Shown: positions 17,862 to 58,482, counted from the first letter of the stretch. The stretch is 64,000 nucleotides of DNA from an uncultured Pseudomonadota bacterium (GCA_963781145.1 CAWADW010000005.1:504423-568422), one strand, 5' to 3'. A program made the numbers and translations. Notes: generated by a model not told the origin, from the letters alone.

Positions 17862-17935
17862 CGGATGTAACCTCTCGGTGGTTGGAGGGCGACTTGACCG
17901 CCCACTACATGAATTTATCGGTCGTTTATCGGCGG

Positions 17936-24848: not shown

Positions 24849-24890
24849 TTGAGGCCGGCCTGTACCAGTCGTACTTATGTAGCAGCCCGT

Positions 24891-27110: not shown

Positions 27111-27166
27111 GTCTTAGCGTACAAGCGTTCGATGCAAGTGTAGCAACGGACCTTTAGACCGCTGCG

Positions 27167-30137: not shown

Positions 30138-30370
30138 GATATCGTCGGCAGTCTCATAGACGGTCGTGTTGCGCCCGATTTCCCCGCAGCCGCCAAGCGG
30201 GATGACTCGGAGAAACGGTCGTTTTTGGATCGACGAGCGGCTCTAGACTTGCCCCCTGTTGGGAGGCTGGGAAAAATTCGTGCAGCATGCACGATGCATT
30301 TAGGCGGCCCCCGCATTTGGCCTGCTGCTTACGTGTCCATGGGCGACTTGACACTCGCCCGCTACGGGTC

Positions 30371-30400
30371 GTAGGGGGCGATTTTCCAATCGCCCCCTAC
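30371..30400. repeat. REP-like palindromic element, family A (GTAGGGGGCGATT-TTCC-AATCGCCCCCTAC), copy 1
   Basis: Perfect 13-bp inverted arms in an intergenic position. Confidence 0.7.
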
Positions 30401-34599: not shown

Positions 34600-34628
34600 A
34601 AGGGGCGATTTTCCAATCGCCCCCTACA
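34600..34628. repeat. REP-like element, family A, copy 2 (between htrA and dnaK)
   Basis: AAGGGGCGATTTTCCAATCGCCCCCTACA. Confidence 0.65.
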
Positions 34629-42201: not shown

Positions 42202-42226
42202 CACGCGCGAATAAAATTCGCGCGTG
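42202..42226. repeat. REP-like element, family B variant (CACGCGCGAATAAAATTCGCGCGTG)
   Basis: Palindrome related to CGCGCGAAT-TTA-TTCGCGCG, abutting two family-A copies. Confidence 0.55.
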
Positions 42227-42252
42227 GGGCGATTTTCCAATCGCCCCCTACA
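42224..42252. repeat. REP-like element, family A, copy 3
   Basis: GTGGGGCGATTTTCCAATCGCCCCCTACA. Confidence 0.7.
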
Positions 42253-42257
42253 TGATC

Positions 42258-42286
42258 GTGGGGCGATTTTCCAATCGCCCCCTACA
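42258..42286. repeat. REP-like element, family A, copy 4 (its CTAC/GTAG tetramer supplies the acs TAG stop codon)
   Basis: Identical to copy 3 and directly repeated 34 bp downstream. Overlaps the acs stop at 42282-42284. Confidence 0.7.
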
Positions 42287-44237
42287 GGGCGTTGTCGATC
42301 GCTTCGAGCGACGCGGGATTTTCCAAAGCAGTCAAGTCGCCTAAATCGAGCTTGAGGTAGCGCGCTCGCGCTACCCGGCGCATCAGTTTTGCGTTGCGCG
42401 TTCGGGGCAGATCGGTCACAAAGAGAATGGCCTTAGGCGCGAGCGCCTTCCCCATCGCCGCGACGACCGCGTCCATCAACGCAAAGCGAAGCTCGTCACT
42501 GCCTTGCCAACCTGGGCGCAAGACCGCGAGGCAGACAACGGCATCACCTTTGATTTGGTCGGGAACGGCGATGGCCGCCGCTTCGCGGACCGACCCGTGG
42601 CCAACGAGTGCGCTCTCATACTCCGCTGGCCCAACTCGCTTGCCTGCAACGTTGATTGTGTCGTCCGAGCGCCCATGGATGAACCAGAAATTGTCATCAG
42701 AGATGCTGGCCCAGTCGCCGTGCACCCAAACATTTTCAAACTTCGACCAGTAGGTCTGCACATAGCGCTCGTCGTCGTGCCAAAAGCCGAGCGTCATGCC
42801 TGGCCACGGTTGCCGGACAACGAGCTCTCCCACCTGTCCGCGCACACTGTTGCCCTGCTCGTCAACGACGTCGGCATCCATGCCCGGCACCGGTCCGTGG
42901 AAGGCACACGGTACCAGCGGACGGATCGGGAAACACCCAAGAATGCCACCGCTGATTTCGGTGCCGCCGGAGTAGTTGATGATCGGCAGCTTCCCGTTGC
43001 CCACGTTGATCGAGAACCACCGGTACGGCTCGGGATTCCACGCTTCACCGGTCGATCCCAAGATGCGCAGCGCCGACAGGTCGTGTTTGCGCGGCACCTC
43101 ATCGCCGTGCACCATCAGAGAGCGAATGGCTGTCGGGGCGATGCCAAGATGCGTTACCTTGTGACGTCCACACACTTCCCAAAGCCGGCCAGGGTGCGGG
43201 AAATCAGGCGTACCGTCATAGAGCACTGCGGTTGCGCCAAGGCCCAGCGCCCCAAGCACCAAAAACGGCCCCATCATCCAGCCCATATCCGTGAACCAAA
43301 GCATTCGATCATTCGGCTTGACGTCAAAGCACAAATATTGATCGATGATCACCTTCACTGGGAAGCCGGCGTGTCCGTGAACGGCTCCCTTGGGCTTACC
43401 CGTGGAGCCTGATGTATAGAGCAGAAGGTAGGGGTCGTTCGCGTCCGTTGGTTCGGGAGCGAAATAGTTTGGCTGCGACCACGTCGACTGGTGCCAATCC
43501 ACGTCGCGATGCTCGTGCCAGTCGATCGGTGCGTCGTTGTGGCGCAGCACCACCGCGTGTTTGATGCTCGCGACCATATCGCACGCAGCGTCGGCAACGC
43601 TCTTCATGTTCACAAATTTGCCCCGCCGAAGCGCGCCGTCCACCGTGAGCAAGACTTTCGCTTTCGCATCATCCAAGCGCGTCGCGAGCGCTTGAGCCCC
43701 ATATCCTGAGAAGGCCGGTACGGCGATCGCCCCCATGCGCCCAATGGCAAGCAGCGCAATCGCGGTCTCTGGAATGAGCGGCATGAACATGCCCACGGTC
43801 TCGCCCCGGCGAACCCCGAGATCGCTCAACGCTCCACACAGCTTTGAAACCTGCACAAGCAATTGCTCGAACGTCAGCGTGCGGGTGGCGCCGTTTTCAG
43901 ATTCCGAGATGATCGCCGGCGCGTGCGCTCGGCCCTCTTCAATGTGGCGATCGATGCAGTTATACGATGCGTTGTATCGCCCGCCCACAAACCAGCGTGC
44001 GAACGGCGTTCCGCGCGAGAGATCCAACGCTTGGCGATAAGGGGTCAGCCACGCGAGCTGCAGATGCAAAACAAGCCGATCGTAAAACGAGGCGATATCG
44101 CGGTGCGCAAGCTCCCAGAGCTCGTCTAACGAAGCAACGCCAGCCTCGCGCATGAACTGCGTGATGTTGGCGTTTTCTTTTGTCTGGGAGGTCGGCTCCC
44201 AAGTGAATGCGGCGCCGACGTCGTTGCGGATCGCCAT
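42282..44237 (-). CDS. acs: acetate--CoA ligase (AMP-forming acetyl-CoA synthetase family)
   Basis: 650 aa, AMP-binding motif YTSGSTGKPKG, Acs-like N- and C-terminal regions. Confidence 0.85.
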   Translation of the reverse strand: MAIRNDVGAAFTWEPTSQTKENANITQFMREAGVASLDELWELAHRDIASFYDRLVLHLQLAWLTPYRQALDLSRGTPFARWFVGGRYNASYNCIDRHIEEGRAHAPAIISESENGATRTLTFEQLLVQVSKLCGALSDLGVRRGETVGMFMPLIPETAIALLAIGRMGAIAVPAFSGYGAQALATRLDDAKAKVLLTVDGALRRGKFVNMKSVADAACDMVASIKHAVVLRHNDAPIDWHEHRDVDWHQSTWSQPNYFAPEPTDANDPYLLLYTSGSTGKPKGAVHGHAGFPVKVIIDQYLCFDVKPNDRMLWFTDMGWMMGPFLVLGALGLGATAVLYDGTPDFPHPGRLWEVCGRHKVTHLGIAPTAIRSLMVHGDEVPRKHDLSALRILGSTGEAWNPEPYRWFSINVGNGKLPIINYSGGTEISGGILGCFPIRPLVPCAFHGPVPGMDADVVDEQGNSVRGQVGELVVRQPWPGMTLGFWHDDERYVQTYWSKFENVWVHGDWASISDDNFWFIHGRSDDTINVAGKRVGPAEYESALVGHGSVREAAAIAVPDQIKGDAVVCLAVLRPGWQGSDELRFALMDAVVAAMGKALAPKAILFVTDLPRTRNAKLMRRVARARYLKLDLGDLTALENPASLEAIDNAL

Positions 44238-44250
44238 GCGCCGCGCTTAT

Positions 44251-45711
44251 CTACTGAGGGGTGGTTCCCTGCGTCTGCGGTGCGGGGCTGCTCGAGCCTG
44301 TTGCGCCAGCCGTGTTGCCTGTGCCAGTGGTGGTCGGCGGCACCGTGCCATCGTGCACCGTGGCGGCTGCAATCCGGTCCGCAATGTACGACATTGCTCG
44401 CTGCAGCTGCGTATCGGTTTCTGGTCTACCAAAATCCGCAGGTTTCACATCGTCGACCGCAATGTCCGGCGCGATGCCAACAGAGTTGATATCGCGGCCG
44501 CTTGGCGTGAGATACCGAGCTGTGGTGATCTTAATGGCGCTACCGTCCGGCAACGGATAGATGGTCTGCACGACCCCTTTGCCAAACGTTCGCGTTCCGA
44601 TGAGCACGCCAGCCCCTGAGTCTTGAATCGCGCCTGACGTAATCTCAGAAGCGCTGGCTGTGTATTCATTGACGAGCACCGCAAGCGGGAGTTGGGGAGC
44701 TGCGATGTTCTCCGCATCGTAGGTAGTCAAGGGTTTCGTGCGCGCATCGATGGACACGATCGGCCCTTCCGGGATGAAGAGCGAAGACACATCGATGGCC
44801 GCGTTGAGGTAACCACCACCGTTGTTGCGCAGATCCAAGATCACGCCTTTGACGCCTTGCTTGTCCAGCTTCTCAATCGCGCTGGCGAGCTCTTGGCCGG
44901 TCGTGAGACCGAAGACGAGCACCTGAACATACCCGATGTCGTTATCGATAACCCGCTCGCGCACGCTTGGCGCATGAATGGTTTCGCGAGTGATCATGAA
45001 GGTCATCGGCTTGGGTTCGTCTTTGCGCTGCACGGTCAGTTGCACCGTCGTGCCTGCTTTGCCGCGAATCAGCGAACTGTCTTGTTCGATGGAGAGGCCC
45101 GCGGTCGACTTGGCATCGACGTTGAGAATCACATCGCCTGCCTGAAGTCCGGCCTTGTCCGCCGGGCCGCCGTCGATCGTTTGCACGACGAGGAGCGATT
45201 TCGAAATCGGATCAACATCGAGCACGATCCCGACGCCAGCGAAGTTTCCGCCGTCCAAGCCTTCATTGAGGCTGCGAAAATCCTTGGGTGACATGAAGAC
45301 GGTCCACCGATCGTGGAGCGAGTCCATCATGCCGGCGATAGCTGCGTAGGCGAGGTTGCGGTTGCCCAAGGTCGAGCCAAACTTTTGGTCGGCAAGGGCG
45401 AGCGTGTTGTTCAGCACGGCAATGTCTGACTCGTCGCTGCCCGAACCGTGCGCGGTCGGGATTTTGTTCGGATCGCCGCCGTGGCTCTTGATGTAGTCGC
45501 GCAAGCCCGTGATGGCGCCGCTGAGGAGCGTTTGATCGGTGGTCGACTTGTAAAACTCAGAAATTGCTTGCTCGAAGGAGTAGTCCAGCATGGACCGCCC
45601 GACTTCATCGGACGACGCACGCGAGGGACTCGCGAACACACCGAAGGTCAGGCTGAATGCGAACGCCGCAGCGACGAGCCTTGCGGCGATTCTACGAATG
45701 GGTTGGGTCAT
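44251..45711 (-). CDS. S41 family C-terminal processing peptidase (CtpA-like), paralog 1
   Basis: PDZ domain (GGPADKAGLQAGDVIL) and S41 catalytic core (TASASEITSGAIQD...GKGVVQT). Pro/Thr/Gly-rich C-terminal tail. Confidence 0.85.
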   Translation of the reverse strand: MTQPIRRIAARLVAAAFAFSLTFGVFASPSRASSDEVGRSMLDYSFEQAISEFYKSTTDQTLLSGAITGLRDYIKSHGGDPNKIPTAHGSGSDESDIAVLNNTLALADQKFGSTLGNRNLAYAAIAGMMDSLHDRWTVFMSPKDFRSLNEGLDGGNFAGVGIVLDVDPISKSLLVVQTIDGGPADKAGLQAGDVILNVDAKSTAGLSIEQDSSLIRGKAGTTVQLTVQRKDEPKPMTFMITRETIHAPSVRERVIDNDIGYVQVLVFGLTTGQELASAIEKLDKQGVKGVILDLRNNGGGYLNAAIDVSSLFIPEGPIVSIDARTKPLTTYDAENIAAPQLPLAVLVNEYTASASEITSGAIQDSGAGVLIGTRTFGKGVVQTIYPLPDGSAIKITTARYLTPSGRDINSVGIAPDIAVDDVKPADFGRPETDTQLQRAMSYIADRIAAATVHDGTVPPTTTGTGNTAGATGSSSPAPQTQGTTPQ

Positions 45712-45747
45712 GCTGTTCCTCTCTTTTTATGGGGCGAGTTTTCTACG

Positions 45748-47178
45748 TTAGACGCTGGGATTTGTGAGGGCGATCTGGCGCTTCAGGTAGCGCAGGGCTG
45801 CTTGCAGCTGAGTATCTTTGCCAGTGACGCCGACGTCTCTGTAGTCCATCGGCACTACGATGTTAGGCTCGATGCCCTTTTTATTGATGTCGCGGCCGTC
45901 CGGCGTCACGTACCGCTGGGTCGTGACTTTGATTGCGCTGCCCCCCGGCAAGTCATAGATCGTCTGCACGACTCCCTTGCCAAAGGTCTTGACACCCACG
46001 AGAATCCCAATCTTTGAATCCTGGATCGCGCCGGCAGTGATCTCAGAAGCGCTGGCCGAGTATTGATTCACGAGAACGACCAGCGGGTGTGGCGGAATCG
46101 CATCTTGGTTGGCGTCATCCGTTTCCACATGCCCGTCGCGGTCGATCCGCGAAACAATTGGTCCATCCGCGATGAATTTCGACGAGATGTCCACCGCGGC
46201 ATCAAGTAGTCCTCCGCCGTTGTCGCGCAGATCCAAGACAAAGGCTTTGGCGCCTTGCTTCAGTAGCCGATCGAGCGCGTCGGTCACTTCTTGCGCCGAG
46301 TGTTCACCGAAATCGTAGAGTTGAATGTATCCGACGTTCCCGTCAATCATGTGTGACGTCATGGACGGCACTTCGATCACTTCGCGCTCGATCGCATAGT
46401 CGCGAACGTCATTCTTGCCGCGGAGAATCGTCATGTGCACCGTTGATCCCGCTTTGCCACGGATCAGGTTCATCACGAGATCGAGGTCGATGCCCTTTGT
46501 TGCTTTGCCGTCGACCGACACGATCACGTCGCCCCGCTTTAACCCTGCGCGAGCAGCCGGGGTGCCGTCAATGGGTTGGATGACGTTGACTTCGTGCGTC
46601 TTTGGATCTTTGCCGATGTACACGCCAATGCCGCCGAAATCGCCCCCTTGAATGAATTCCGAGAGTGACGTCTTGTCGCGCGGGCTCAAGAACACCGTGT
46701 ACGGATCGCGCAGCGAATCGAGCGCGCCCTCGATCGCAACGTACGTCAAATCTTGGGAGCCGGCTTGCTTGCCATAGTTGTGCAACGCCGTGGAGAGCAG
46801 GGTGTTGGCGTCTGCGTCAACTTGAGCCCCAGATGCCGAGGCGGTGATTGCCGGCAGGCTCAAGGTTCCGTTGATGTGCTTGGTCTTGAGGAACTCGAGC
46901 AAGCCTTTTCGCTCGCCACTGAGGAGCTGCGATTCATCAATGGGCTTGTAGTACACGTCGCGGACCTTATCCAGCGACATGTCGAGCATATCGAGGTCTT
47001 TTTGCTCGTCATTTCCTGCGCCCTCGCTGCCGTCAAAAGCTATGTTGCCGAGATCCCAGGCCAAAACTGCGCGCCGTTCACCCAACCGCTCGCGCAGCGG
47101 CGCGGCGTGCTGAAGCGCAAGGGTGGCTACGACCAGCGCGGCCGCAAGGGTGAAGAGAAGGAGGGCTTTACGAACCAC
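45748..47178 (-). CDS. S41 family C-terminal processing peptidase, paralog 2
   Basis: Same architecture (GTPAARAGLKRGDVIVSVDG; SASASEITAGAIQDSKIGILVGVKTFGKGVVQTI). Confidence 0.85.
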   Translation of the reverse strand: MVRKALLLFTLAAALVVATLALQHAAPLRERLGERRAVLAWDLGNIAFDGSEGAGNDEQKDLDMLDMSLDKVRDVYYKPIDESQLLSGERKGLLEFLKTKHINGTLSLPAITASASGAQVDADANTLLSTALHNYGKQAGSQDLTYVAIEGALDSLRDPYTVFLSPRDKTSLSEFIQGGDFGGIGVYIGKDPKTHEVNVIQPIDGTPAARAGLKRGDVIVSVDGKATKGIDLDLVMNLIRGKAGSTVHMTILRGKNDVRDYAIEREVIEVPSMTSHMIDGNVGYIQLYDFGEHSAQEVTDALDRLLKQGAKAFVLDLRDNGGGLLDAAVDISSKFIADGPIVSRIDRDGHVETDDANQDAIPPHPLVVLVNQYSASASEITAGAIQDSKIGILVGVKTFGKGVVQTIYDLPGGSAIKVTTQRYVTPDGRDINKKGIEPNIVVPMDYRDVGVTGKDTQLQAALRYLKRQIALTNPSV

Positions 47179-47282
47179 GGGCGGGACAGTTTCCTTTCAA
47201 TTCTGCTATTTATTTCTTCGGCGGCTGGGGTCATCATGCCCGCAATCCGCCTCCCTATCATAACGAATCGGCAGCCCGCTTG

Positions 47283-48569
47283 TTACAAGCGAGTGAGGGG
47301 GTTCACCGGTACGCCGTTCACCCGAATTTCAAAATGTAAGTGTGGTCCCGTAGCGTAGCCCGTGGCCCCGACGGCCCCGATAACCTGGCCCCGCTGAATA
47401 TGCTGATTGACCGATACGTACATTGCCGAGCAGTGAGCATAAAGCGTCGATAGTCCCGATCCGTGGTCTAGAATGATGGCATTGCCGTATCCGCCGTACC
47501 AACTTGCGTACAGGACGACGCCGTCGGCGGCTGCTTGAATCGGCGTGCCATAGTCGGCACCGATATCGATGCCCGAATGGAGCGCGTAGCGCCCGGTAAT
47601 TGGATCCACCCGCATGCCGAAAGGCGAGGTGATCGGACCTCGCACAGGCCACGCAAAGACGACCGGACCGAATTCCGAACAGACGGGCGGAGCCAGACCC
47701 GCCGCCATCGCAGCCATCCGACGAGCTTGGCAAGCCTCGTATCGGGCGCGCAGCGTGACCGCCTCGTCCTCGCGCTGTTTTTCTTGGATCAACGCCTGGA
47801 GCCGGGCCTCCTCCGCAGCGCTCAACCCTTCAAGCTCGTACACCTGTTGGGCGATGATCGAGCGCTGACTTGACGCAATAGCAAGCAAGGAGCGTCGCTG
47901 GTCGGCGAGTTGGCCAAGCTCCTGCTTGCGTGCAAGCTCGTCTTCTTGCTCTCGCACCAACGCTGCTTGCGTGCTCTCCAAGCCGAGCACGATCGTTTCG
48001 TAACGCGCTTGCTCGGAGTTCACCGTCGCGATGAGCCGCGAGTCGGAACGCAAAATAGCGCGGATGAAATCCCAGCGTTCGATAAAGTCGACGAATGAGG
48101 TCGCACTCAAAAGCACGTCGAGGTACGATGTTGCGCTCCCGTATTCATACACGTCAACAATCCGGTGATTGAGCGCATCGCGATGGCGGTCGAGACTGGC
48201 TTGCGCGGCTGCAAGTTGGCGTTTGCGAATAGCCAAGCGCAGTTGCGTCTGTGTAATGGCGCTGCCAAGCGCACCCAAATCGCCGCGCACCCGAATAATG
48301 CTGTACTGCACGGATTCGAGTTGTTGCGAGATCGTCTGCTCTTTGAAGCGCGCGACGTGGAGTTTGAGACGGCTCTCGTGCAGCTTACGCTGCGTTGCCT
48401 CGAGCAGCGCTTTCTTTTCTTGAATCTTTTCGCTGATCGGCACCGGGGTCGCGGCCAGCGCGACCGGTGCGAATGCGCTTGCAAATGGCTGGACACTAAG
48501 GATGACAACCGCGAGGACAACAAGACGTAGTCGCGCGAATTTATTCGCGCGTGCGCGCTGGATGTTCAA
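47283..48569 (-). CDS. M23 family metallopeptidase with N-terminal coiled coil (EnvC-like murein hydrolase activator)
   Basis: Signal peptide, long coiled-coil region and a C-terminal LytM/M23 domain (HSGIDIGADYGTPI...GPHLHFE). TTG start overlaps the ftsX stop. Confidence 0.8.
   Translation of the reverse strand: MNIQRARANKFARLRLVVLAVVILSVQPFASAFAPVALAATPVPISEKIQEKKALLEATQRKLHESRLKLHVARFKEQTISQQLESVQYSIIRVRGDLGALGSAITQTQLRLAIRKRQLAAAQASLDRHRDALNHRIVDVYEYGSATSYLDVLLSATSFVDFIERWDFIRAILRSDSRLIATVNSEQARYETIVLGLESTQAALVREQEDELARKQELGQLADQRRSLLAIASSQRSIIAQQVYELEGLSAAEEARLQALIQEKQREDEAVTLRARYEACQARRMAAMAAGLAPPVCSEFGPVVFAWPVRGPITSPFGMRVDPITGRYALHSGIDIGADYGTPIQAAADGVVLYASWYGGYGNAIILDHGSGLSTLYAHCSAMYVSVNQHIQRGQVIGAVGATGYATGPHLHFEIRVNGVPVNPLTRL
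48526..48550. repeat. REP-like element, family B (GTAGTCGCGCGAATTTATTCGCGCG), located inside the N-terminal coding region of the M23 gene
   Basis: Exact family-B sequence. It encodes RARANKFARL of the signal-peptide n-region. Confidence 0.6.
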
Positions 48570-49453
48570 GCGGTCTTCAGGTATCGTCCGATAGAGAGCA
48601 TGCTCGAAAGCATCCCAACAAGGACGCCGACCAAAACCAGTTCGAGCGCGAGGTGCGGCAGCGGTACGCTTGCCGGATTGAACGGAATAAACGGCAGATT
48701 GAGAATGAATTTGGGAGCCAGCGAGCGATAGCCCGCGTCCAAGACCAGCAATCCGATGGTTGCCCCGAAGAGTCCTGAGAGAATGCCTTCGAACACGAAC
48801 GGCCAGCGCACAGCCCAGCCGGTTGCGCCGACCAGTTGCATAATGCCAATCTCGCGCTGCCGCGCGAACACCGTGAGGCGAATCGTATTGTACATGATCA
48901 GCGCCGTAGCCAAGAGCAGCAGTGCCACGACGCCAAGCCCTGCCGCGCTAAAGAGCGCCTCGGCTCGGAGCAGCTTCTGGGTCACGCTGCTGCCGTAGTT
49001 AATATTGGCCACCCCAGGTTTGTGGCCCATTTCCCCGGCAAGCGGGGGAACGTCCGTCGGCGCATACGTGTGGACGACAATGGTGTTTGGCAACGGATTA
49101 GTATTGAGAAGTCCCAAATTAAATTGGCCGCGCAGCGACTGACGCAGATTGATCATGGCGCGCTTCTTGCTCACATAGCGAACTGTGTCCACCCGCGGGT
49201 CTGCTTGCAGCGACCGGATGAGCGCATCGACGTCCGGACCCTTCGCGTCATCCCGAAGATAGATCGCGATTGCGACTTGACCGACGATGTTCTTCATCAC
49301 GATGTCGAACGACGTTCGCAGGAACAAGAAAACGCCAAGCAAGATGATGGAGATAGCGATCGTGCCGATGGCGGTGAGTGCCATCGTGATGTTCCGCGTG
49401 AAGTTTTGGGCCACCTCAGCCCAAAAAAAACGAACCTTACCCCAGTCCAACAT
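48566..49453 (-). CDS. ftsX: cell division permease FtsX
   Basis: FtsX topology (TM1, large periplasmic loop, three C-terminal transmembrane helices) and the conserved C-terminus. Internal start MLDWGKVRFF chosen to limit overlap with ftsE. Confidence 0.85.
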   Translation of the reverse strand: MLDWGKVRFFWAEVAQNFTRNITMALTAIGTIAISIILLGVFLFLRTSFDIVMKNIVGQVAIAIYLRDDAKGPDVDALIRSLQADPRVDTVRYVSKKRAMINLRQSLRGQFNLGLLNTNPLPNTIVVHTYAPTDVPPLAGEMGHKPGVANINYGSSVTQKLLRAEALFSAAGLGVVALLLLATALIMYNTIRLTVFARQREIGIMQLVGATGWAVRWPFVFEGILSGLFGATIGLLVLDAGYRSLAPKFILNLPFIPFNPASVPLPHLALELVLVGVLVGMLSSMLSIGRYLKTA

Positions 49454-50127
49454 GATAACGTCCGCGCTCTTCGTCGCGCGCGATGCGGCCATTGACCAAG
49501 CGCACGACCCGGCGCCGCATGCGGTCGACGATGGCTTGATTGTGGGTGGCGACGATCGTCGTCGTGCCCTTGGCGTTGATGCGCGAGAGCAGCGCCATGA
49601 TTTCGCTCGAGGTCTCGGGGTCGAGGTTGCCGGTGGGTTCGTCGCACAAGAGAATGAGGGGATTGTTGACGAGCGAGCGCGCGATGGCTACGCGCTGCTG
49701 CTCTCCGCCGGAGAGCTCTTGGGGAAACATCTTGGCTTTGTGCGCGATGCCGACGAGCTCCAGCATGCGAGGAACGCGCCGCAGCACTTCGCGAGAGCTC
49801 GCCCCCGTCACTTGCAAAGCGTAAGCAACATTTTCCCACACCGTCTTTTGATAAAGCAGTTTGAAATCTTGAAAGACGACGCCAACCTTGCGCCGCAAGA
49901 ACGGAACGTCCCCGGGGCGCAGCGTCGTGAGACTCTGACCATCGACCTCGACGGTCGCCTTCGGTGGGCCGCACCTCGCGGATAATGCACGAAAGCAGGC
50001 TCGACTTACCCTGCCCCGTGCTGCCGACCAGGAACATGAACTCGCCGCGGGCGACCGTGAGCGAAATCTCGGTCAGCGCGTGAACGCCGTTCGGGTAGAC
50101 GAGGCTGACGTCTCGAAAAACGATCAT
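49437..50127 (-). pseudogene. ftsE: cell division ATP-binding protein FtsE, frameshifted near 49955 (probably a sequence error)
   Basis: N-terminus MIVFRDVSLVYPNGVHALTEISLTV..GSTGQGKSSLL (Walker A) in ORF 49297..50127, up to ...RPTEG. The remainder (ATVEVDGQSLTT...[15 protein letters not shown]...[11 protein letters not shown]) is in frame 49437..49898. Confidence 0.85.
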
Positions 50128-50245
50128 GCCGCGCCTTGTATGCCCACAGCGTGAGAAATGGCCATCTGTAACGATTTATTCGCCGCCTGGGGACGCGGCC
50201 CTCGCGGAGTGGGGAACCAGCGCTTGGAATGGCAAAAGGGTTGCT

Positions 50246-51397
50246 ATGGACTTCGACCTCTCGACCGAACAGCAAGACGTCGCGAATCTATGTCGCGAAT
50301 TCGCCGAGGGCGAAATCGCGCCCCACGCCCAAGAATGGGATGCAAAAGCAGAATTTCCGCTTGCCACCGTGCGCAAGATGGGTGAGCTCGGATTTTTGGG
50401 TTTGCCCTTTCCTGAGAAATATGGCGGAGCCGGATGCGGACACCGTTTCGTACGCACTAGCCGTCATGGAAATCGGAAAAGCCGACGCTTCTGTGGGCAT
50501 CACTATGGCAGCGCATGTGTCGCTTGGATCACAGCCCTTCTTTGCATTTGGCAGCGAGGCGCAAAAACAAAAATATCTCGTGCCGCTGGCGCGAGGAGAA
50601 CGCTTGTGGGCATTCGGACTTACCGAAGCACAGGCCGGTTCTGACGCGGGTGCGACGCAGACGACGGCTCAAGTGCACGATGGACGCTGGACGATCAACG
50701 GATCAAAGTGTTTCATCACCAATGCGGGTACGCCGATGACCGGAGGCGTGACGATCACCGCCGTGACGGGGCGCGGTAACGGCCGTTCGGAAATCAGCAA
50801 CATCATCGTCCCTCAAGACATCCCTGGGTACACGCAGGCGGCTCCGTATAAGAAGATGGGTTGGCGCGCATCGGATACGCGCGAACTGTCACTTCGACAA
50901 CGCAGAGGTGCCGGAGGAAAACCTGCTTAGGCGAGCGCGGACGAGGCCTTAAGCAGTTTCTCGAGATTCTCGACGGTGGACGGATCAGCGTCGGTGCACT
51001 TTCCGTGGGTCTCGCGCAAGCCTGTTATGAGGCTGCTGCGAAGTACGCGAAAGAGCGCCATCAATTCGGCCAACCCATTGCGAAGTTCCAGGCCGTGCAG
51101 TTTCAACTCGTCGACATGGCGGTGGAAATCGAACTCGCGCGCTCTGCCGTGCTCAAAGCAGCGTGGCTCAAAGACCAAGGGCGTGATTTCGCCACCGCGG
51201 CGGCAATGGCGAAGCTTTTTTCGGGCGAGGTCTCTCGGCGCTGCGCGAATGCCGCGGTGCAGATTCACGGCGGTTACGGGTTTATGGACGAGTATCCCGT
51301 GTCGCGTTACTGGCGCGACTGCAAGATCAACGAGATCGGCGAGGGCACAAACGAAGTGCAGCGCATGGTGATCGCGCGCCAACTCGGTCTGTCGTGA
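50246..51397 (+). pseudogene. acyl-CoA dehydrogenase interrupted by three +1 indels (about 50432, 50893, 50930)
   Basis: MDFDLSTEQQDV...EKYGGAG | ADTVSYALAVMEIGK...DTRELS | FDNAEVPEENLL | GERGRGLKQF...EGTNEVQRMVIARQLGLS*. The protein continues through three frames. Confidence 0.8.
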
Positions 51398-51398
51398 T

Positions 51399-51423
51399 GT
51401 AGTCGCGCGAATTTATTCGCGCG
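51399..51423. repeat. REP-like element, family B (GTAGTCGCGCGAATTTATTCGCGCG)
   Basis: Intergenic, immediately after the ACAD stop codon. Confidence 0.65.
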
Positions 51424-51446
51424 TTCATTCTACTCCGATTTAGCGG

Positions 51447-52527
51447 CTAGTGGGTCGTGTCGACTGCAATCCCGAACCCGGCGAGACCCACGCTCGAATC
51501 GCCTATCTCCCGATGATTGAGTATCGACGTCACGGGGCCGCTTGCAACCTCAGGTCCGGGGATGACGTGGATGACCGATCCGTCGTAGACGAAGAGCAGA
51601 TCGCGGACCGAATCGTAGGCCATTCCTGACGGGCCGCTCGAAAAGCCGTTGATAACTTGGCCGTGAGCGTTGGGGCCGCTCGCGGTACTCGGCTTATGGA
51701 CGACGTCGATTTGCCCGACAATGTTGCCTCCCACCTTCACGATTCTCAGCCACGAATAATTTGTCGTTCGCAGCGCTGTACGCCATGCCTTGGGGGAAGA
51801 ACAGGGCGCTCACCTCGCGGCTTGCTGCTATGGTGGGGTTCGTCATGGAAGTAACAGCTGTTTGGGCCGCCGCACCGAAATTGTCAAACGAAGCAACGAC
51901 CGCACCGAAATCGCTGACAAACAGCCGGTCGTTCACCGGATCATAGATCATTTCGACTGCGCGCGGCGTGCCGGCGATGCTCGAATCGGTGATCGTTAGG
52001 GTGATGTTCGCCGCTGGCACCGAACTGCCGGTCATCGAGTGCGCATTTGCAAACACTTGGATCGTCGAGCCATTAACGTTGGAAACATAGAGGAGATCGT
52101 GGTTGACATCGTATGCGGCCGTCCCTTGACCGTTCATGTAGGGGACGAGCGAGTTCGGGTTCATGCCGCCCTCCGCCCCGGGGTTGTTCCAAACCCTAAT
52201 CGGGGTGGAAAAGTTCCCGCCGCCTCCCATTGTAGGATAGGCGGTGGGATACCACAGCACGTTGTAAAGCGGCGAGAAGACGACATCCGGGTTGCTGAGG
52301 TCGCTCGTTGGCAGAACCACCGCAGCCGCGATGAATCCGTTGGCGGTGGAAGCATGCGTGTACACGCGTATCTGCTGCACGGTTTGAACGTAGAGCGTGT
52401 CCGGACCGGTTCCGGTTGGGGTCGGCGTGGGAGATGGGGACGTGCTTGCAGTGCTATGGCAACCGTAGCCACCTGAGGCGACAATGATGCACGCCAGAGT
52501 AAAGCAGATTCCCAGTTTGGGATTCAT
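51447..52527 (-). pseudogene. secreted repeat (beta-propeller-like) lipoprotein, one frameshift near 51720
   Basis: Signal/lipobox-like N-terminus MNPKLGICFTLAC, Thr/Pro linker, then repeated ...LYV/LFV..D.. motifs. The C-terminal part continues in ORF 51447..51740. Confidence 0.5.
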
Positions 52528-52711
52528 CGGGGTTTGGGTTCTCCTCGATTAGGGAAAGGCGCGCTTGAGAAAGCGGCAGCCATACTATTTAAGAGAGAAC
52601 TAGGCCCGCCTCTTCGCTGGTTTAGTCGCGCGCCCTGCCCCATTCTCTGGTTGGCAAGTCGAAGGCTGCCGGTTTCCCAGCAGCCTTCTCCATTGAATGT
52701 TCAGTTCGCGC

Positions 52712-55700
52712 TTACAGTTTTGTGGACAAACTGAACACGTACGTGCGTACCGGAATCGCTCCACCACCAGCTAGTGCAGCAGAGGCGCCGACGTACGGGA
52801 AGTAGTCATCGCCGTAGTAGGCGTTCGCTGGGTTAGCCGATTTCGCAGCGAAAGCGCCCATCCCAAGCGGCGACAATGCGTAGAACGGATTGTCTGCGTA
52901 GGAGATGATACCCTGACTCGCCGGCTGCTCCCAAGCATAGCCTTGATTGTGAACACCCCAGAGGAGGTTCGTTCCTAGGATCGATGCTTTCAGGTTGTGG
53001 CCGATGTCGTGAGAGATGCCCAAGTTGAGCGCCCACCACGACGGCCCTTTGAAGGCGCCTGGGGCATCGAATTGGCTTGTGTATGGATCTGGCCCCAGCG
53101 CACCCGGCAATGGGGCTGTGCAAGGACTGATCGTGCCGTGCTCGCAGGTAGCGGGCAACGGAGTGCAGCCGGGTGCATTGCCCCCAACCCCGGGCGGGCC
53201 AGCAGCAAAGCAGTGCGCGTCTGAGAAGAGTTGCGGGTCTCCGTACGGGTTGCCGGATTGATAGTTCAACGTCGGTAGAATATCAAATCCATGCTCCCGC
53301 ACATCGAGCCCCACGTTGAGTCACGAATCGCACATCGTACGACGGCGATGCTGGCACCGCCTGATCGTAAGATGGCGAGTAGTACGCGTTCGGATCGAGC
53401 GTCGCGAAGTGTGTGCCGTAGTAGTTGTTGTAGGCGGAGATCTGGCTATTAATTGTGTCGATGTACGATGCTCCGCTCGGACCCTTCCAGAACCTGATCT
53501 TGGAATTGGTGTAGGTCGCGGCTATCACGCCCCCAATGCCGTTCTCACTGGACACATTCTTGCTCAGTAAGAACTCGGCTCCCGAAACGCGCGCATTGCC
53601 GAAGTTGTATCCGGTAACGAAGCTCGGCGATGCGGGATTCACGGGCAAGTTAAGGATCTGGTTTTGCGTATCTCTATAGAACGGCGTGATCTTCATGGAC
53701 AAGCCAGCTGAAAAGTCGTGCTCGACCGATAAGTCGTAGTTCGTGCTGTTTTCGGGTTGCACGTTGTGAACCGTCAAGAACCCCAGGCCATCGTAGAATC
53801 GATTCAGCAGTTGAACCGTGTCGCCCGGTCCCCAGAACGGGGCTTCCCGGTACTCTACGAACGCAGAGTCCGGAGGCTGAACGTAGCGTCCAACTGAGAA
53901 CCGAAGGATGTTGGTTGGATCAAACGTGTACGTGAAGCCGAATCGTGGGCTTATCGCCTCATACGAGATGGAGGTCGGCGGATTGCTCCACCCCCCTGCT
54001 CCCGGTGCATCTTTTGCGCTCAAACCCACGCCGCCAGGATCAGTCCCCGGGGGACTGTTTGGCGTGCTCCCGTTGGTGAGGATCGAGAAGCAGTTCGTTC
54101 CCGCTGGATAGCCGGGGATACTCGGATCGCCTGGCGAGTATGCGAAACCATGCAGGCACTGCCCGTTTTGTTCTTCAGCCATGTATGCTAGACCGTTGAG
54201 ACCGGTGATCTGCATATCGGGCATCAGCACGAAACGGAACTCATCCCAACGCGCTCCGAAGTCGAACAACAGCTTGTCGCTGGGTTTGAACTGGTCGTCG
54301 ATGACACCATCGTAGGTTATAGGCGTCGTGCTCGACCAATATCCGAACGGCGAGCCTACGTAGGTGACGGGGCTGTCCCGCCGTGCATGCCATGCCCACA
54401 CCTCCGCAATTGGGGTGCGTTCCCCAAAAGTTGAATGCCGGCTGGTAATTGTAGCGCAGCGTCAAGTCGCGCGTCCAGTCGGTGTCGATCTTCAGAAGGT
54501 TCTGCGCGTTGAGCTGGTTTTGGTAGTTGAGCGTGACCCCTGTCGCGTTGTCGTGCAGTTGGTAGAATGTGAAACCGACCCAGCCGTTGATTGGCTGGTC
54601 GAGGCTCCAACCCGAAAACAAGTTGTACTCGTACAGGCGCAAGAACGAATTGTCGTTCAGAGCTCGAGTGTAGGACAGCTTTGTAATCGAGTACTGCGTA
54701 TTTTGGCTGTCTTGGAATGTTGGCGGGATCGGGCCGCCAAGGCTGCCACCGGACGTTGGCCAGGTGAGCGGCGTGAGCAGCGCTGGGTTGTATGGTTGCC
54801 CAGCGTTGCCTTTGTAGAACAGACCCGTCGGCCACGTGAGATTCGTCGCCGATTGAAACCGGTGTTGCTCGTGAAGGTCGACACGGTTGGGTCCGAATTG
54901 AATGTGCCTTCTGGGGCATACGGAGCCGACTGGGTCGAACCGACCACATACAGTGCTTGCAGGTCGTCGCTCAGACCATTGTGCTGGAGCGTCCAGTGCA
55001 GATTCGTCACGGTGTCGCGTTGTGCGGTCCACGGAATGTCCGAATACGCGGCCAATGACTGCGGCTGCATCAGGGAGTTGGCCACCGAGCAGTTGAGGAA
55101 ACCGCCGCCTGGCGTTAACCCTGGAATCGTAGAACCAAAGACGTCGTGAGAATTCCAGGCGCCGCAACCAGGATCGTTCGCCGGAACACTGATCGCGGTT
55201 CCCGCCAGGTTGCTCCGGTCGCCGAAGTTGTAGTCGGCGTTCAAAGCCAACGTCGAGACGTAGTAGGTAAACCGATTGTCCGGTGTGCCACCGTAGATGT
55301 CCGCTTGGACTGAGTGGTTGAAGAGCGGTGAGCCGACGATGCCCGTAAAGTCAGCACCGCCTGGATATTTTCCACGCGAAACGACTTCGTTGACATAGCC
55401 GGACATGGCGCGACCCGCATCTGCCGGAGCGCCGCCGGTGTAGACTTCCAAGCTCGAAAGGCCATTCGTCAAACCTGCTGTGGAATTGTAAAAGTCAAAT
55501 CCGCGGTTAAGCGGAATGCCTTCAAGTTCGAATCCGATTTGGTCGAACGAACCGCCGCGCATGGAGAGCGAACCCTGGCCTGCGTAGCCACCGCCCGATC
55601 CAACTTGCCGCACAACGCCCGGCATCGAGCCGACAACGCCGTTTTGGCTATACATCGTCTCTGAGCCGCCTTGCGAACCTTGCAAGTTGGCGATGGCGCG

Positions 55701-56123
55701 CGAGTTGACGGCATAGAGGTCGCCCGTCACCGTCTTACTCACGACGCTCGCAGTTGCAGTGGTCGTAACGTGGCCGATGGTCTTGATGGATTGCCGCATG
55801 TGGATATCTGCGGAGGCTGTTTGGTCAGCCGTAACTGTGATGCCGTAGATGGTTGCGGTGTCGTAACCGTCTTTGCTCCCAGTTATGCTGTAGGTGTCCG
55901 GAGAGAGGTTGAGGATCGAATAGAAACCATTCGACCCGGTCGTTGAACTTTGCGATTGGCTGGGTGACGAAGCCGTCACCTTAGTGCCAGTTAGTGGGTT
56001 GCCATTTTGATCCGTCACCTTGCCCTGAATGTTGCCAGTCGTGCCGGCCAGTGCCCATGTTCCCTGGACGAGCAAAACCGCGACCGTCAGAAGCGCGGTG
56101 CGGAGTAGGCCCTTAGTGGTCAT
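52712..56123 (-). pseudogene. TonB-dependent receptor with N-terminal carboxypeptidase-regulatory-like domain, split by at least 3 frameshifts
   Basis: Strong RBS AAGGAGG + ATG at 56123. Signal peptide, a CarboxypepD_reg-like segment (GNIQGKVTDQNGNPLTGTKVTA...GFYSILNLSPDTYSITGSKDGY), plug and beta-barrel segments spread over ORFs 54657..56198, 54241..55167, 53283..54401 and 52712..53314. Confidence 0.7.
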
Positions 56124-56311
56124 CAAGGGTTTCCTCCTTAAGTGAGTGAGAATGCTTAACCGACGAACCAGCCACTGCGGTCGGCCGAGCCGATGCACGC
56201 GCCGTCGTCCCGATTAAGGTGAGTTTAAGGTTCGAACGGTGACTTCGCACACCTGCTCGCAGCGCGTCTTGCGGGACGGATAAGGGCGACAGCGGACCTA
56301 AAGGTCCGCTG

Positions 56312-57223
56312 CTACATTGCGTTAGCGGGTGTATTTTTCAGTGGCGGGCGTGGTTGGCGGAGAATCAATCGCACGAGATCCGGAATGTGCGCCGGACTCT
56401 CGGCGACTGGTACATTAACTTTTTCAAACGCTTGAACTTTTGCTTGCGCCGTGCCGCTGCTGCCACTGACGATTGCCCCCGCGTGACCCATGCGCTTGCC
56501 TTCGGGTGCAGAACGTCCACCGATGAACGCCACCGCTGGTTTTGTGAATTCTCGACGTGCAATCATCGCGGCGGCATCTTCTTCGTCGGTACCACCGATT
56601 TCGCCGACGACAACCACGGCGTGAGTCTCAGGATCTTCCTGGAAAGCCTGCAAGCAGTCAGTGAAGACGGTGCCGATGATTGGATCGCCGCCGATACCCA
56701 CGCACGTGCTCTGGCCGATGCCCGCGCGCGTCAACTGATCGACGATCTCGTACGTTAGCGTGCCACTGCGCGATACGAGCCCGACGTTGCCCGCGGAGAA
56801 CACATGGCCCGGCATAATACCCACGAGCGACTGGCCGGGCGTGACAAGGCCAGGACAATTAGGTCCGATGAGTCGAGCGTCTGGGGGTATGACAGCAACT
56901 GCTTTGAGCATGTCGTGCACTGGAATGCCTTCTGTGATGCAAACGATCAGCTTGATCCCCGCATCGGCTGCCTCTAAAATTGCATCGGCGGCGAACGGTG
57001 GTGGAACGAATATGATGCTTACCGTCGCACCGGTTTTGGCAACCGCCTCGCTCACGGTGTTAAAGACATCGAAGCCTTCTACGGTTTGGCCGCCTTTGCC
57101 GGGCGTGACGCCGCCGGCTATGTTCGTGCCGTAAGCGCGCATGCGGTTGGCGTTGTGCAAGCCCTCGCGACCGGTGATGCCTTGAACGAGGACGACGCCT
57201 GTACGGTCGAGATAGATGGACAA
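56312..57223 (-). CDS. sucD: succinate--CoA ligase subunit alpha
   Basis: CoA-binding and CoA-ligase motifs ([17 protein letters not shown], the His-phosphorylation loop GHAGAI). TTG start. Confidence 0.9.
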
Positions 57224-57242
57224 CTGCTTCCTCCTATCGGGT

Positions 57243-57268
57243 ACGCGCGAATAAATTCGCGCGACTAC
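57243..57268. repeat. REP-like element, family B (minus-strand GTAG head provides the sucC TAG stop codon)
   Basis: On the minus strand reads GTAGTCGCGCGAATTTATTCGCGCGTAC. Overlaps the sucC stop at 57265-57267. Confidence 0.65.
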
Positions 57269-58413
57269 GTTTTGGCGATGGCGACTGCGCGCGCAGCGCC
57301 GTCGTTCATCGTTTCAACTGCCGCAATGCCGGCGGCTTCCAAGACGGCTCGCCCTTCCTTTTCATTGGTGCCTGTGAGCCGCACGACCAGTCGATCCTTT
57401 TTCCATTTGCCACCGTCAAGGGCGGCAATCAAACCGCGTGCCACTTCATCACCGCGCGTAATGCCGCCAAAAATGTTGATGAACAAAGCCTTCACTCGCG
57501 GATCAGAGGTCACAATATCCACTGCGTTCCGAACGACATCGGCCTTTGCGCCGCCACCAATGTCGCAGAAATCGGTCGCTTCGCCGCCCGCAGCTCGCAC
57601 CGCGTCCATCGTCCCCATGACAAGTCCGGCCCCGTTTCCGATCACGCCAACGCTTTCGTTCCCTTTGCCGCTTAGGTAAGCGTAGTTGAGATTGGTCTGC
57701 CGAGCGCGCTGTTCGAGCACGTGGTCTGGCAAGTCGGTTCGCCATGCCTCGAGTTCCGGGTGACGAATCAAACCGTTGTCGTCAATGTCGACCTTCGCAT
57801 CCGAGGCGACGAGCTTCCCGTCTTTGGTGATGGCGAGCGGATTGATTTCGAGCAGCATCGCGCCGATGTCAAAGAACAGCGCGTACAGCTTACCGAGAAT
57901 CCCGACGAATTGGTTGGCGATCTCGGCTGGGATGCGGGCTTCTCGAGCGACGCGCCGCCCGATGAACGGCCAATACCCACCCGCAGGATTGATGCAGTAC
58001 TTCGCGATCGCAGAGGGATTCGTGGCGGCGACTTCCTCGATGTCCATGCCTCCCATGGCCGAGGCGATGATAATGGGGCGCTTGCTCGCGCGATCGACCG
58101 TTATGGATAGGTACAGCTCGCGTTCAATGTCCATTCGCTGCTCAATCAGGATGCGTTTGGCAACCTCGCCCTTGATATTCATGCCGAGGATGGCTTGAGC
58201 CGGTTCGCGGACGTCGTCCGCGCTCGTGCAGAACTTGATCCCGCCTGCCTTGCCTCGTCCGCCGACGAGCACTTGCGCTTTCACCACGGAGGGCGCCGGA
58301 TTCTCACGCATGATCTGCACGGCTTCCTCTACCGAAGACGCGACGCGACCACGCGGCACGGGAATGCCCGCTTTGGCAAATAGTTCTTTCCCTTGGTATT
58401 CAAGTAGACGCAT
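57265..58413 (-). CDS. sucC: succinate--CoA ligase (ADP-forming) subunit beta
   Basis: Start MRLLEYQGKELFAKAGIPVP, preceded by GGAGAG. ATP-grasp and CoA-ligase domains. C-terminus ...AIAKT*. Confidence 0.9.
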   Translation of the reverse strand: MRLLEYQGKELFAKAGIPVPRGRVASSVEEAVQIMRENPAPSVVKAQVLVGGRGKAGGIKFCTSADDVREPAQAILGMNIKGEVAKRILIEQRMDIERELYLSITVDRASKRPIIIASAMGGMDIEEVAATNPSAIAKYCINPAGGYWPFIGRRVAREARIPAEIANQFVGILGKLYALFFDIGAMLLEINPLAITKDGKLVASDAKVDIDDNGLIRHPELEAWRTDLPDHVLEQRARQTNLNYAYLSGKGNESVGVIGNGAGLVMGTMDAVRAAGGEATDFCDIGGGAKADVVRNAVDIVTSDPRVKALFINIFGGITRGDEVARGLIAALDGGKWKKDRLVVRLTGTNEKEGRAVLEAAGIAAVETMNDGAARAVAIAKT

Positions 58414-58435
58414 GACGCTCTCCGGTTGATGGGCG

Positions 58436-58467
58436 CTGTGCGGGCGATTTTCCAATCGCCCTCTACA
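58436..58467. repeat. REP-like element, family A, degenerate copy 5
   Basis: GTGCGGGCGATTTTCCAATCGCCCTCTACAT. Confidence 0.55.
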
Positions 58468-58482
58468 TATCTGTTGGTGCGG

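Follow-up and report, generated by a model that had tools for sequence, protein, structure and literature searches.

Repetitive extragenic palindromes (REPs) of the GTAG superfamily, which was defined by Di Nocera, De Gregorio & Rocco (2013, BMC Genomics 14:522; PMC3733652) and includes the Stenotrophomonas SMAG and Pseudomonas GTAG-1 elements, stand in most cases 3′ of convergent and unidirectional open reading frames (ORFs) at a distance of less than 20 bp, often from both ORFs, and their termini often provide the stop codon. Here we analyze a REP system of this kind in a 64,000-nucleotide stretch of DNA from an uncultured bacterium (GCA_963781145.1, CAWADW010000005.1:504423-568422), hereafter called the window, and in a sister genome. 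Flush and overlapping junctions between REPs and stop codons proved non-random at genome scale, and in two conserved enzymes, SucC and Acs, the TAG of a REP has taken over the stop. The elements share with the GTAG superfamily their size (palindromes of 20-40 bp), the terminal GTAG, a high copy number and a location mainly 3′ of genes. They differ from the published members in their host lineage, probably Eremiobacterota, in the extended (A)TGTAG head common to five hairpin families, and in that adjacent copies are nearly always head-to-tail, mixed-family pairs included. The stop overlap can now also be quantified: approximately 13% of elements supply a stop codon through the TAG of the head and approximately 3% through a TAA in the loop, or about one element in six.

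Genes for REP-associated tyrosine transposases (RAYTs) have been described between inverted REPs, sometimes right after a stop codon (Nunvar et al. 2010; PMC2817692). The Escherichia coli system of REPs, bacterial interspersed mosaic elements (BIMEs) and RAYT (TnpA-REP/YafM; PMC2817692; Messing et al. 2012, PMC3479197) resembles the one reported here in its Y1 HUH RAYT flanked by inverted REPs, in the GTAG 5′ of the hairpin foot and in REPs that at times stand directly downstream of a stop codon. However, the hairpin sequences here are unrelated to E. coli REPs, the RAYT is known from sister-genome sequence, and whereas E. coli BIMEs alternate in REP orientation, the clusters here are direct. 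Among neighbours no more than 60 nt apart in the sister-genome loci and the window, 45 are direct (head-to-tail) and 5 inverted, and the direct pairs include the mixed-family combinations A-B, B-D and D-A. In Pseudomonas, inverted REP doublets, or REPINs, were reportedly regarded by Bertels and Rainey in 2011 as the mobile unit. As with REPINs, our elements combine a REP family with an associated RAYT and are dispersed in many copies, but inverted doublets at fixed spacing are rare; with 45 direct against 5 inverted neighbours, the alternating or inverted, regularly spaced organization of BIMEs and REPINs was not found.

The preliminary description of the window had proposed a second REP family with a GTAG head, and this family, here called B, is genuine. 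Its layout is (A)TGTAG-T-CGCGCGAA-TTTA-TTCGCGCG. The 20-nt core, CGCGCGAATTTATTCGCGCG, has exactly three matches in the window, at 48532-48551 (+), 51404-51423 (+) and 57244-57263 (−), compared with an average of 0.04 expected by chance in dinucleotide-preserving shuffles of the 64-kb window. Each core is preceded on its own strand by GTAG-T, the GTAG occupying 48527-48530, 51399-51402 and 57265-57268 (CTAC on the plus strand). Four copies had been listed. Three are canonical, although the one placed at 48526 had been set one base early (GTAG runs from 48527), and the fourth, the variant at 42202-42226, exists as a headless relic: a perfect hairpin, CACGCGCGAATAAAATTCGCGCGTG, with 11-bp arms and a loop 1 nt longer, but no GTAG. 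A canonical, headed family-B copy, TTGTAGTCGCGCGAATTTATTCGCGCG, occupies the orthologous site in sister-genome locus L036, which identifies the window copy as a relic, its head having been overwritten by a family-A element. Family A itself reads GTAG-GGGGCGATTGGAAAATCGCCCC, with exact window copies at 30375, 34602, 42226 and 42260 and a variant at 58441. Across the system, the hairpins have a GC-rich stem of 8-9 bp and a loop of 4 nt (or 2 nt), were detected as exact inverted repeats and recur in the predicted RNA folds; every window copy lies between called genes. The copies and genes on which the argument turns are as follows.

42202-42226, minus strand: headless family-B relic; hairpin CACGCGCGAATTTTATTCGCGCGTG on the minus strand, with a family-A tail occupying the head position
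42226-42253, minus strand: family-A REP, ATGTAG-GGGGCGATTGGAAAATCGCCCC; second element of the acs-uma2 cluster
42260-42285, minus strand: family-A REP; its TAG (42284-42282) is the acs stop
42282-44237, minus strand: acs, acetyl-CoA synthetase; Pfam ACAS_N, AMP-binding and AMP-binding_C
48527-48552, plus strand: family-B REP, GTAG-T-CGCGCGAA-TTTA-TTCGCGCG-T; between the ftsX stop and the M23-peptidase gene
51397-51424, plus strand: family-B REP with the full ATGTAG head; the head A (51397) is the final base of the TGA stop of an acyl-CoA dehydrogenase (ACAD) gene
57243-57268, minus strand: family-B REP in the sucC-sucD spacer; its TAG (57267-57265) is the sucC stop
57265-58410 (ORF 57265-58455), minus strand: sucC, succinyl-CoA synthetase beta subunit; Pfam ATP-grasp_2 and Ligase_CoA

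To place these elements in a genomic context, we scanned species-representative genomes with the 20-nt core. The scan returned 70 loci, 62 of them from CAVTNB01, a metagenome-assembled genome (MAG) of four contigs; the remaining 8 of the 70 were isolated single matches in unrelated organisms. CAVTNB01 is a sister of the window genome (87-91% DNA identity), and its loci L036, L032, L012 and L031 tile window positions 35744-62884. It carries at least 73 distinct exact-core copies on its 4 contigs. Among the 76 exact-core copies of the MAG and the window, the head contains GTAG in 67 (positions −5 to −2), TGTAGT in 57 and ATGTAGT in 46, and the head of family B recurs in families A, C, D and E. 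The nearest named homologs of SucC and Acs come from Eremiobacterota MAGs (Candidatus Eremiobacteraceae, Tumulicola, Velthaea; approximately 70-77% identity), so that the lineage is probably Eremiobacterota, despite the label "uncultured proteobacterium" of the sister MAG. No link between REPs and Eremiobacterota was found in the literature searched.

The sister genome also contains the transposase. In locus L068, a 150-aa ORF at 6580-7029 matches Pfam Y1_Tnp (34.7 bits) and, with 98.9 bits at a cut-off of 80, the NCBIfam model NF047646, "REP-associated tyrosine transposase". Upstream of this gene ATGTAGTCGCGCGAATTCATTCGCGCG occurs in three direct copies and downstream in two inverted ones, all of them B-like REPs; a RAYT gene between inverted REPs is the defining REP/RAYT arrangement. 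The flanking REPs carry the loop/arm variant AATTCATT on the left (6430-6545) and the arms CCCGCGAA/CTCGCGAA on the right (7040-7110). These copies differ from the dominant AATTTATT form and so do not represent the most abundant variant.

In the window, two genes end inside a REP, exactly as the preliminary description had stated. The sucC gene terminates ...AAA ACG TAG, with its TAG within the family-B GTAG head at 57265, and acs terminates ...GCC CTG TAG, with its TAG within the head of the family-A copy at 42282. SucC has 382 aa, the length annotated elsewhere (homolog P0001, 382 aa, is 100% identical), and the sucD ribosome-binding site (RBS), AGGAGG, lies 8 nt beyond the hairpin. The third junction, said to begin 1 nt after the ACAD stop, was also borne out: the C-terminal ACAD fragment stops with TGA at 51395-51397 and GTAG starts at 51399, so that the A of TGA is the A of ATGTAG.

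These junctions recur beyond the window assembly. The sucC-REP junction is identical in four assemblies (the window and three others of the same strain), and Illumina-era JGI contigs and the sister species also carry it. The sister-species acs ends TTG TAG in a family-A head, the counterpart of CTG TAG in the window, and the ACAD-REP junction at 51399 is the same in the sister genome. The 48527 copy, which lies tail-first relative to ftsX (stop TGA at 48566-48568, minus strand) and the M23-peptidase gene, is kept at the orthologous sister site, its hairpin being 100% identical compared with approximately 70-75% for the flanks.

We next tabulated the distance from REP to stop codon, a check put forward in the preliminary description. 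The sample comprised the 62 CAVTNB01 loci and the window, with genes called by a simple codon-usage scorer. Each GTAG with a GC-rich hairpin no more than 3 nt further on was counted as an element, which gave 186 non-redundant elements of families A-E together with a few unclassified ones. The distance d runs from the first base of the stop codon of the co-oriented upstream gene to the T of the TAG in the head, and was distributed as follows.

d = 0: 22 elements of families A-E plus 3 unclassified (25/186); the head TAG is the stop
d = 5: 8 elements; TAA or TGA followed by TGTAG (the flush "stop+TGTAG" class, which includes the ACAD junction at 51397-51424)
d = 6: 4 elements
d = 7 to 40: 1-2 elements per position; background

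The spikes at d = 0 and d = 5 are strongly non-random. Among the 98 co-oriented family A-E elements within 0-60 nt, 22 fall at d = 0 against 1.7 expected (binomial p = 3e-18), and the 8 elements at d = 5 also exceed expectation (binomial p = 3e-4). Coincidence with a stop codon is 8.4-fold more frequent for REP heads than for other GTAG tetranucleotides (Fisher p = 2e-12). The genes concerned are real, as judged from Pfam domains that extend to near the C-terminus in 9 of 10 tested d = 0 proteins. Fourteen of the 25 d = 0 genes end in ATG TAG and thus carry a repeat-encoded C-terminal Met, and 16 of the 25 belong to convergent pairs, many with a total spacer of 23-54 nt, essentially one REP. 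At the extreme, a single family-B REP in L056 (5171-5202) bears GTAG at both ends and stops both convergent genes (ACG TAG and ATG TAG), which leaves just 23 nt of intergenic space.

The reading frames of the element add a second signature. Read forward, an element has a stop in a single frame, that of the head TAG, and lacks one in the remaining two; read in reverse, a single frame meets the loop TAA. Genes that end in REPs use these stop-bearing frames. Read-through into the element in the stop-free frames is limited to approximately two credible cases. In the opposite orientation, a spike occurs 11 nt inside the tail, where six copies supply their loop TAA to a convergent gene: five of family B (in L003, L016, L021, L030 and L037) and one of family C (L004). 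The last three codons of the five family-B genes, xCG CGC GAA, are encoded by the REP arm and their proteins end ...RE*; the six loop-TAA genes overall end ...RE*/..RT*. Stop usage in the sample amounts to 148 TAA, 129 TAG (33%) and 118 TGA. REP heads account for at least 24 of the TAG stops, and degenerate REP hairpins follow several others; at least a fifth of the sampled TAG stops are REP heads or degenerate REP heads. The TAG frequency in the sampled genes is unusually high for a bacterium. A further idea, that the TAG of nearby elements serves as an in-frame back-up stop, was dropped, as the TAGs at d = 5-40 have no preferred frame (14, 24 and 22 over the three phases).

It is very improbable that these overlaps are artefacts, produced by assembly indels or by over-called ORFs that run on to the first TAG and by chance meet it in a REP. 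The window itself holds a case that may be of this kind, involving the element

56290-56317, minus strand: family-C REP, ATGTAG-CAGCGGACC-TTTA-GGTCCGCTG (that is, ATGTAG-CAGCGGACCTTTAGGTCCGCTG); 3′ of sucD

The window sucD ORF (303 aa, ending ATG TAG in this REP) was considered as a third case of a REP-supplied stop and rejected. Its end results from an extra G near 56350 that is missing in all relatives and in three further assemblies of the strain (99.7-99.85% identity); the native stop is TGA at 56338-56340, and SucD in relatives has 294 aa, ending ...REPAR[KRH]*. The window sucD-REP overlap is an assembly error or a private variant, in which the family-C TAG acts as a back-stop, closing the frameshifted ORF after nine codons. 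In the sister-species counterpart of the family-C element, decay has left GTGG and a broken stem. Likewise, the ACAD gene (50126-51397) is split over three frames, which hold the N-terminal, middle and C-terminal Pfam domains. This split reflects two frameshifts or a pseudogene, and in view of the sucD indel in the same assembly, assembly errors are likely. Moreover, the window source and CAVTNB01 both resemble long-read MAGs, and a 121-aa ORF (48165-48530, plus strand) that ends in the TAG of the 48527 REP is probably spurious; it has no Pfam match, runs antisense to the M23 gene and was set aside.

Against an artefact stand the agreement of the sucC junction among the four assemblies, the sister species and the JGI contigs, the acs junction common to two species, and the equal lengths of SucC and Acs and their REP-free orthologs. 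At an assembly indel rate of approximately 1 per 2 kb, indels could explain just 1-2 of the 22 d = 0 cases. For sucC and acs, the artefact explanation is already refuted.

Comparison with relatives allowed us to follow individual junctions with and without a REP. Loci are identified by their handles, L073 being REP-free.

sucC-sucD, L073: AAG AAA TAA GGAGCAAACAT ttg; 11-nt spacer
sucC-sucD, L071: AGC TAG, immediately followed by a TGTAG family-D REP, then AAGGAG
sucC-sucD, L076: AAA ATG TAG, 8 nt without hairpin (orphan head), a C REP and a B-like REP
sucC-sucD, L074: SucC longer by 4 aa with a TGA stop; degenerate head, two C REPs and a headless B hairpin
sucC-sucD, window: ACG TAG, then the family-B hairpin
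sucC-sucD, sister species: ATG TAG, then three tandem B copies
ACAD-sucC, L073: TAG C GGAG...; 11-nt spacer
ACAD-sucC, L071: TAA followed by a TGTAG-REP
ACAD-sucC, L076: ATG TAG followed by a B-like hairpin

SucC homologs at 84-100% identity have 382-383 aa and end ...A(I/L)AK plus one variable residue (T, M, G, S, K or A), and the length is 382 aa with a REP and in REP-free L073 alike. The Acs stop position is invariant among 80 homologs down to 60% identity; the last residue alone varies, mostly R in general and L in REP-bearing genomes. In REP-free relatives, Acs (...IDxA[R/H/S] plus stop) ends CGC TAA, AGC TAG or ATC TAA, and in one relative CAC TAA is immediately followed by a B-like REP. 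The REP TAG has therefore taken over the SucC and Acs stops in place, at the ancestral codon position and with unchanged length, the last codon being overwritten by the xTG of the head.

This result answers a question raised in the preliminary description, whether the ancestral stop had been displaced: it had not, since SucC (382 aa, AAA TAA plus an 11-nt spacer) and Acs end at the identical codon in REP-free relatives. The preliminary description had held that identical end codons followed by unrelated sequence in REP-free relatives would make the overlap coincidental. Downstream sequence is indeed unrelated there for both genes, yet the genome-wide pile-up rules out coincidence. Two apparent relics of ancestral stops downstream of the REPs, CGA TAG GAGG after sucC and (C/T)GC TAG CC after acs, were not used as evidence; taken as the former final codon with its stop, they would place the insertion exactly one codon upstream. 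MAFFT preferentially aligns the CTAG of the acs cluster with a CTAG located 10 nt downstream of the REP-free stop, at an identical 16-nt spacing to a conserved -10-like box, and the stop-like triplets before GGAG in sucC are equally explained by the extended Shine-Dalgarno consensus TAAGGAGG.

On the contig that contains L073 and L078 (JGI Ga0556620_0002102; approximately 80-88% protein identity), all three junctions examined are free of REPs and the operon spacers measure 11 nt. This contig may represent a REP-free member of the clade and is useful as an empty-site reference. Where REPs fill these operon spacers, their length increases from 11 nt to up to 122-132 nt.

Taken together, these patterns favour an explanation by survival and compaction, to which we give qualified preference: GTAG-type REPs spread by a RAYT would accumulate 3′ of genes, and survival at tolerated sites combined with compaction would yield the pile-up at stop codons. 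Its starting points were observed directly: what the elements are, that they are associated with a RAYT, that they pile up at stops with a bias in frame, and that SucC and Acs had their stops taken over in place. In the proposed sequence of events, the RAYT would spread and maintain short GC-rich hairpins with a 5′ (A)TGTAG head in a compact genome, and a copy would land on the last codon or stop, or be brought there by small deletions. Two outcomes would survive: the REP stands directly after the stop, giving a TAA/TGA+TGTAG junction, or its own TAG (in reverse, the loop TAA) lies in frame, so that translation ends at once. With 0-1 nt between stop and RBS in the REP-free relative, an inserted hairpin must either follow the stop exactly or carry an in-frame stop. 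Tight junctions, such as 11-nt operon spacers and convergent pairs, would thus leave no other place, and flush or overlapping copies would pile up. Where the REP TAG replaces a stop, it would do so at the ancestral codon, with the last residue alone changing, to Met, Leu or Thr. We infer that purifying selection and compaction, rather than targeted insertion, lie behind the pile-up. Of the two options raised in the preliminary description, selection for compact gene-REP junctions fits best, given the 11-nt spacers, the convergent one-REP spacers and the use of the loop TAA; a target preference for gene 3′ ends was not demonstrated.

Such a preference would follow if the RAYT placed REPs at or next to stop-like sequence (T-A-R or a pre-existing GTAG), with flush junctions as its direct products, which we regard as improbable. 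A parallel exists in IS200/IS605 transposases, which insert 3′ of a fixed tetranucleotide. The sharp spikes at d = 0 and d = 5 occur in the co-oriented arrangement only, and the SucC and Acs takeovers are codon-exact at the ancestral stop. In each of two genomes, both junctions share one geometry: in L071, TGTAG-REPs lie exactly between stop and RBS at ACAD-sucC and sucC-sucD (d = 5 in both), and in L076 d = 0 in both. Position −8 is rich in A with T nearly absent, and −7 is usually A, so that TAA and TGA match the upstream consensus, while the excess of head-to-tail neighbours (45 versus 5) suggests directional insertion.

Several observations argue the other way. The empty L073 site reads AAA TAA GGAG without GTAG, whereas the filled L071 site has its own TGTAG after the stop, which indicates in one clean comparison that the TGTAG arrives with the element rather than pre-existing. 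For approximately two thirds of the elements, the distance to any co-oriented stop is 7 to >60 nt, head-first and tail-first copies are equally common outside the spikes, and head targeting does not predict the use of the loop TAA in reverse orientation. The sample contains at least 30 GTAG stops that lack a REP, and in 11-nt spacers the flush position is the sole one that selection permits. The base before non-REP TAG stops (G 38, C 35, A 16, T 16) shows no depletion of G and was uninformative as a test of GTAG-stop targeting. A stricter version, in which the RAYT integrates (A)TGTAG-hairpins in fixed orientation at, or one codon before, T-A-R stops and overwrites native stops with TAG, appears a distant prospect. 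If insertion were aimed at stops in this way, the 33% TAG usage would be explained, and one head-specific transposase would be shared by five hairpin families.

Positive selection offers another route to the same pattern: a REP hairpin at the stop could tune the upstream gene through pausing, tmRNA tagging, mRNA 3′-end protection or sucC:sucD coupling, an analogy-based reading that we consider doubtful. Two species approximately 10% apart share the sucC and acs junctions as well as the copies at 48527 and 51399, with identical hairpins in flanks of approximately 70-75% identity, and REP placement in the GTAG superfamily is mainly after 3′ ends (PMC3733652). An E. coli REP located no more than 15 nt from a stop reduces translation (Liang, Rudd & Deutscher 2015, as cited in PMC12306157). 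The geometry here is comparable, with the hairpin 1-2 nt past the stop or the stop inside the element, a likeness that amounts to a functional analogy with the REPs as cited there; by this analogy, a hairpin 1-2 nt past the stop may affect termination or mRNA stability. However, the same junctions hold different families (B, C or D) or none in close relatives, which points to turnover instead of a fixed regulatory device. The REP-free relative retains the same operon with 11-nt spacers, and uniform hairpins could also result from RAYT-linked homogenization or recent spread.

The hairpins are not intrinsic (Rho-independent) terminators. No T-run follows the hairpins in the window except a weak TTCATTCT after 51423, and terminator-like sites are not enriched (21 versus 17.7 in shuffles). 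In the acs-uma2 cluster, the predicted fold of the three hairpins reaches −59 kcal/mol (z = −6.1).

Survival with compaction nevertheless faces several difficulties. Pure random insertion followed by survival would require approximately 14 tolerated in-frame positions per gene to yield the 22 cases, at a background of approximately 1.5 per nt. Takeover occurred at exactly the ancestral stop in both genes that could be checked, and the uniform geometry within L071 and within L076 hints at a lineage- or family-specific geometry that would fit a more specific mechanism. The RAYT was seen in the sister genome only and was not found in the 64-kb window by regex and tblastn, and both its action on these REPs and an effect on translation are putative. 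The sampled loci were selected for family-B content and represent approximately 20% of one nanopore MAG, with gene calls from a crude home-made caller, and a few d = 0 cases may be indel artefacts like that of sucD.

Further members of the REP system and degenerate heads lie elsewhere in the window.

17886-17912, 24877-24896 and 27140-27166: degenerate or orphan heads from the window scan
30340-30365, minus strand: family-D REP; same REP system, outside 42202-57268
30371-30400, minus strand: family-A REP; same REP system, outside 42202-57268
34602-34627, minus strand: family-A REP of the same REP system
58441-58468, minus strand: family-A variant, ATGTAGAGGGCGATTGGAAAATCGCCCG; ACAD-sucC spacer, 20 nt beyond the ACAD stop

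The copy at 30371-30400, a neighbour of the family-D REP at 30340-30365, forms a perfect palindrome of 30 nt, GTAGGGGGCGATTTTCCAATCGCCCCCTAC; both strands carry a GTAG head. At 24877-24896 (ATGTAGCAGCCCGTCTACAT), two inverted ATGTAG heads stand 8 nt apart, as in a REP with a collapsed hairpin, and a 739-aa gene (24891-27110, minus strand) terminates GAT ATG TAG within this double head, a further repeat-derived stop. An Rfam scan of the 64-kb window returned no family at threshold. Two neighbouring minus-strand genes (486 and 476 aa), probably tandem paralogs, share an internal 102-nt direct repeat (44597-44698 and 45995-46096; 74% identity). In the loci of relatives, the gene adjoining acs on its 5′ side has PDZ and Peptidase_S41 domains.

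The core phenomenon was already described in 2013 (PMC3733652), and these data do not establish a new class of mechanism. What is new is the host lineage, the extended head shared by five families, the direct-orientation clusters, the quantification of stop overlap and the use of the loop TAA. The findings extend REP/RAYT systems to an uncultured lineage that has been little studied and is probably Eremiobacterota, and provide a quantified case of selfish hairpin repeats rewriting gene ends, in which the last residue of conserved enzymes such as SucC and Acs is replaced. For annotation, C-terminal Met or Leu followed by TAG inside repeats is to be expected in such genomes, and TAG usage can be inflated by REPs, whose heads constitute ready-made back-stops after 3′ frameshifts.

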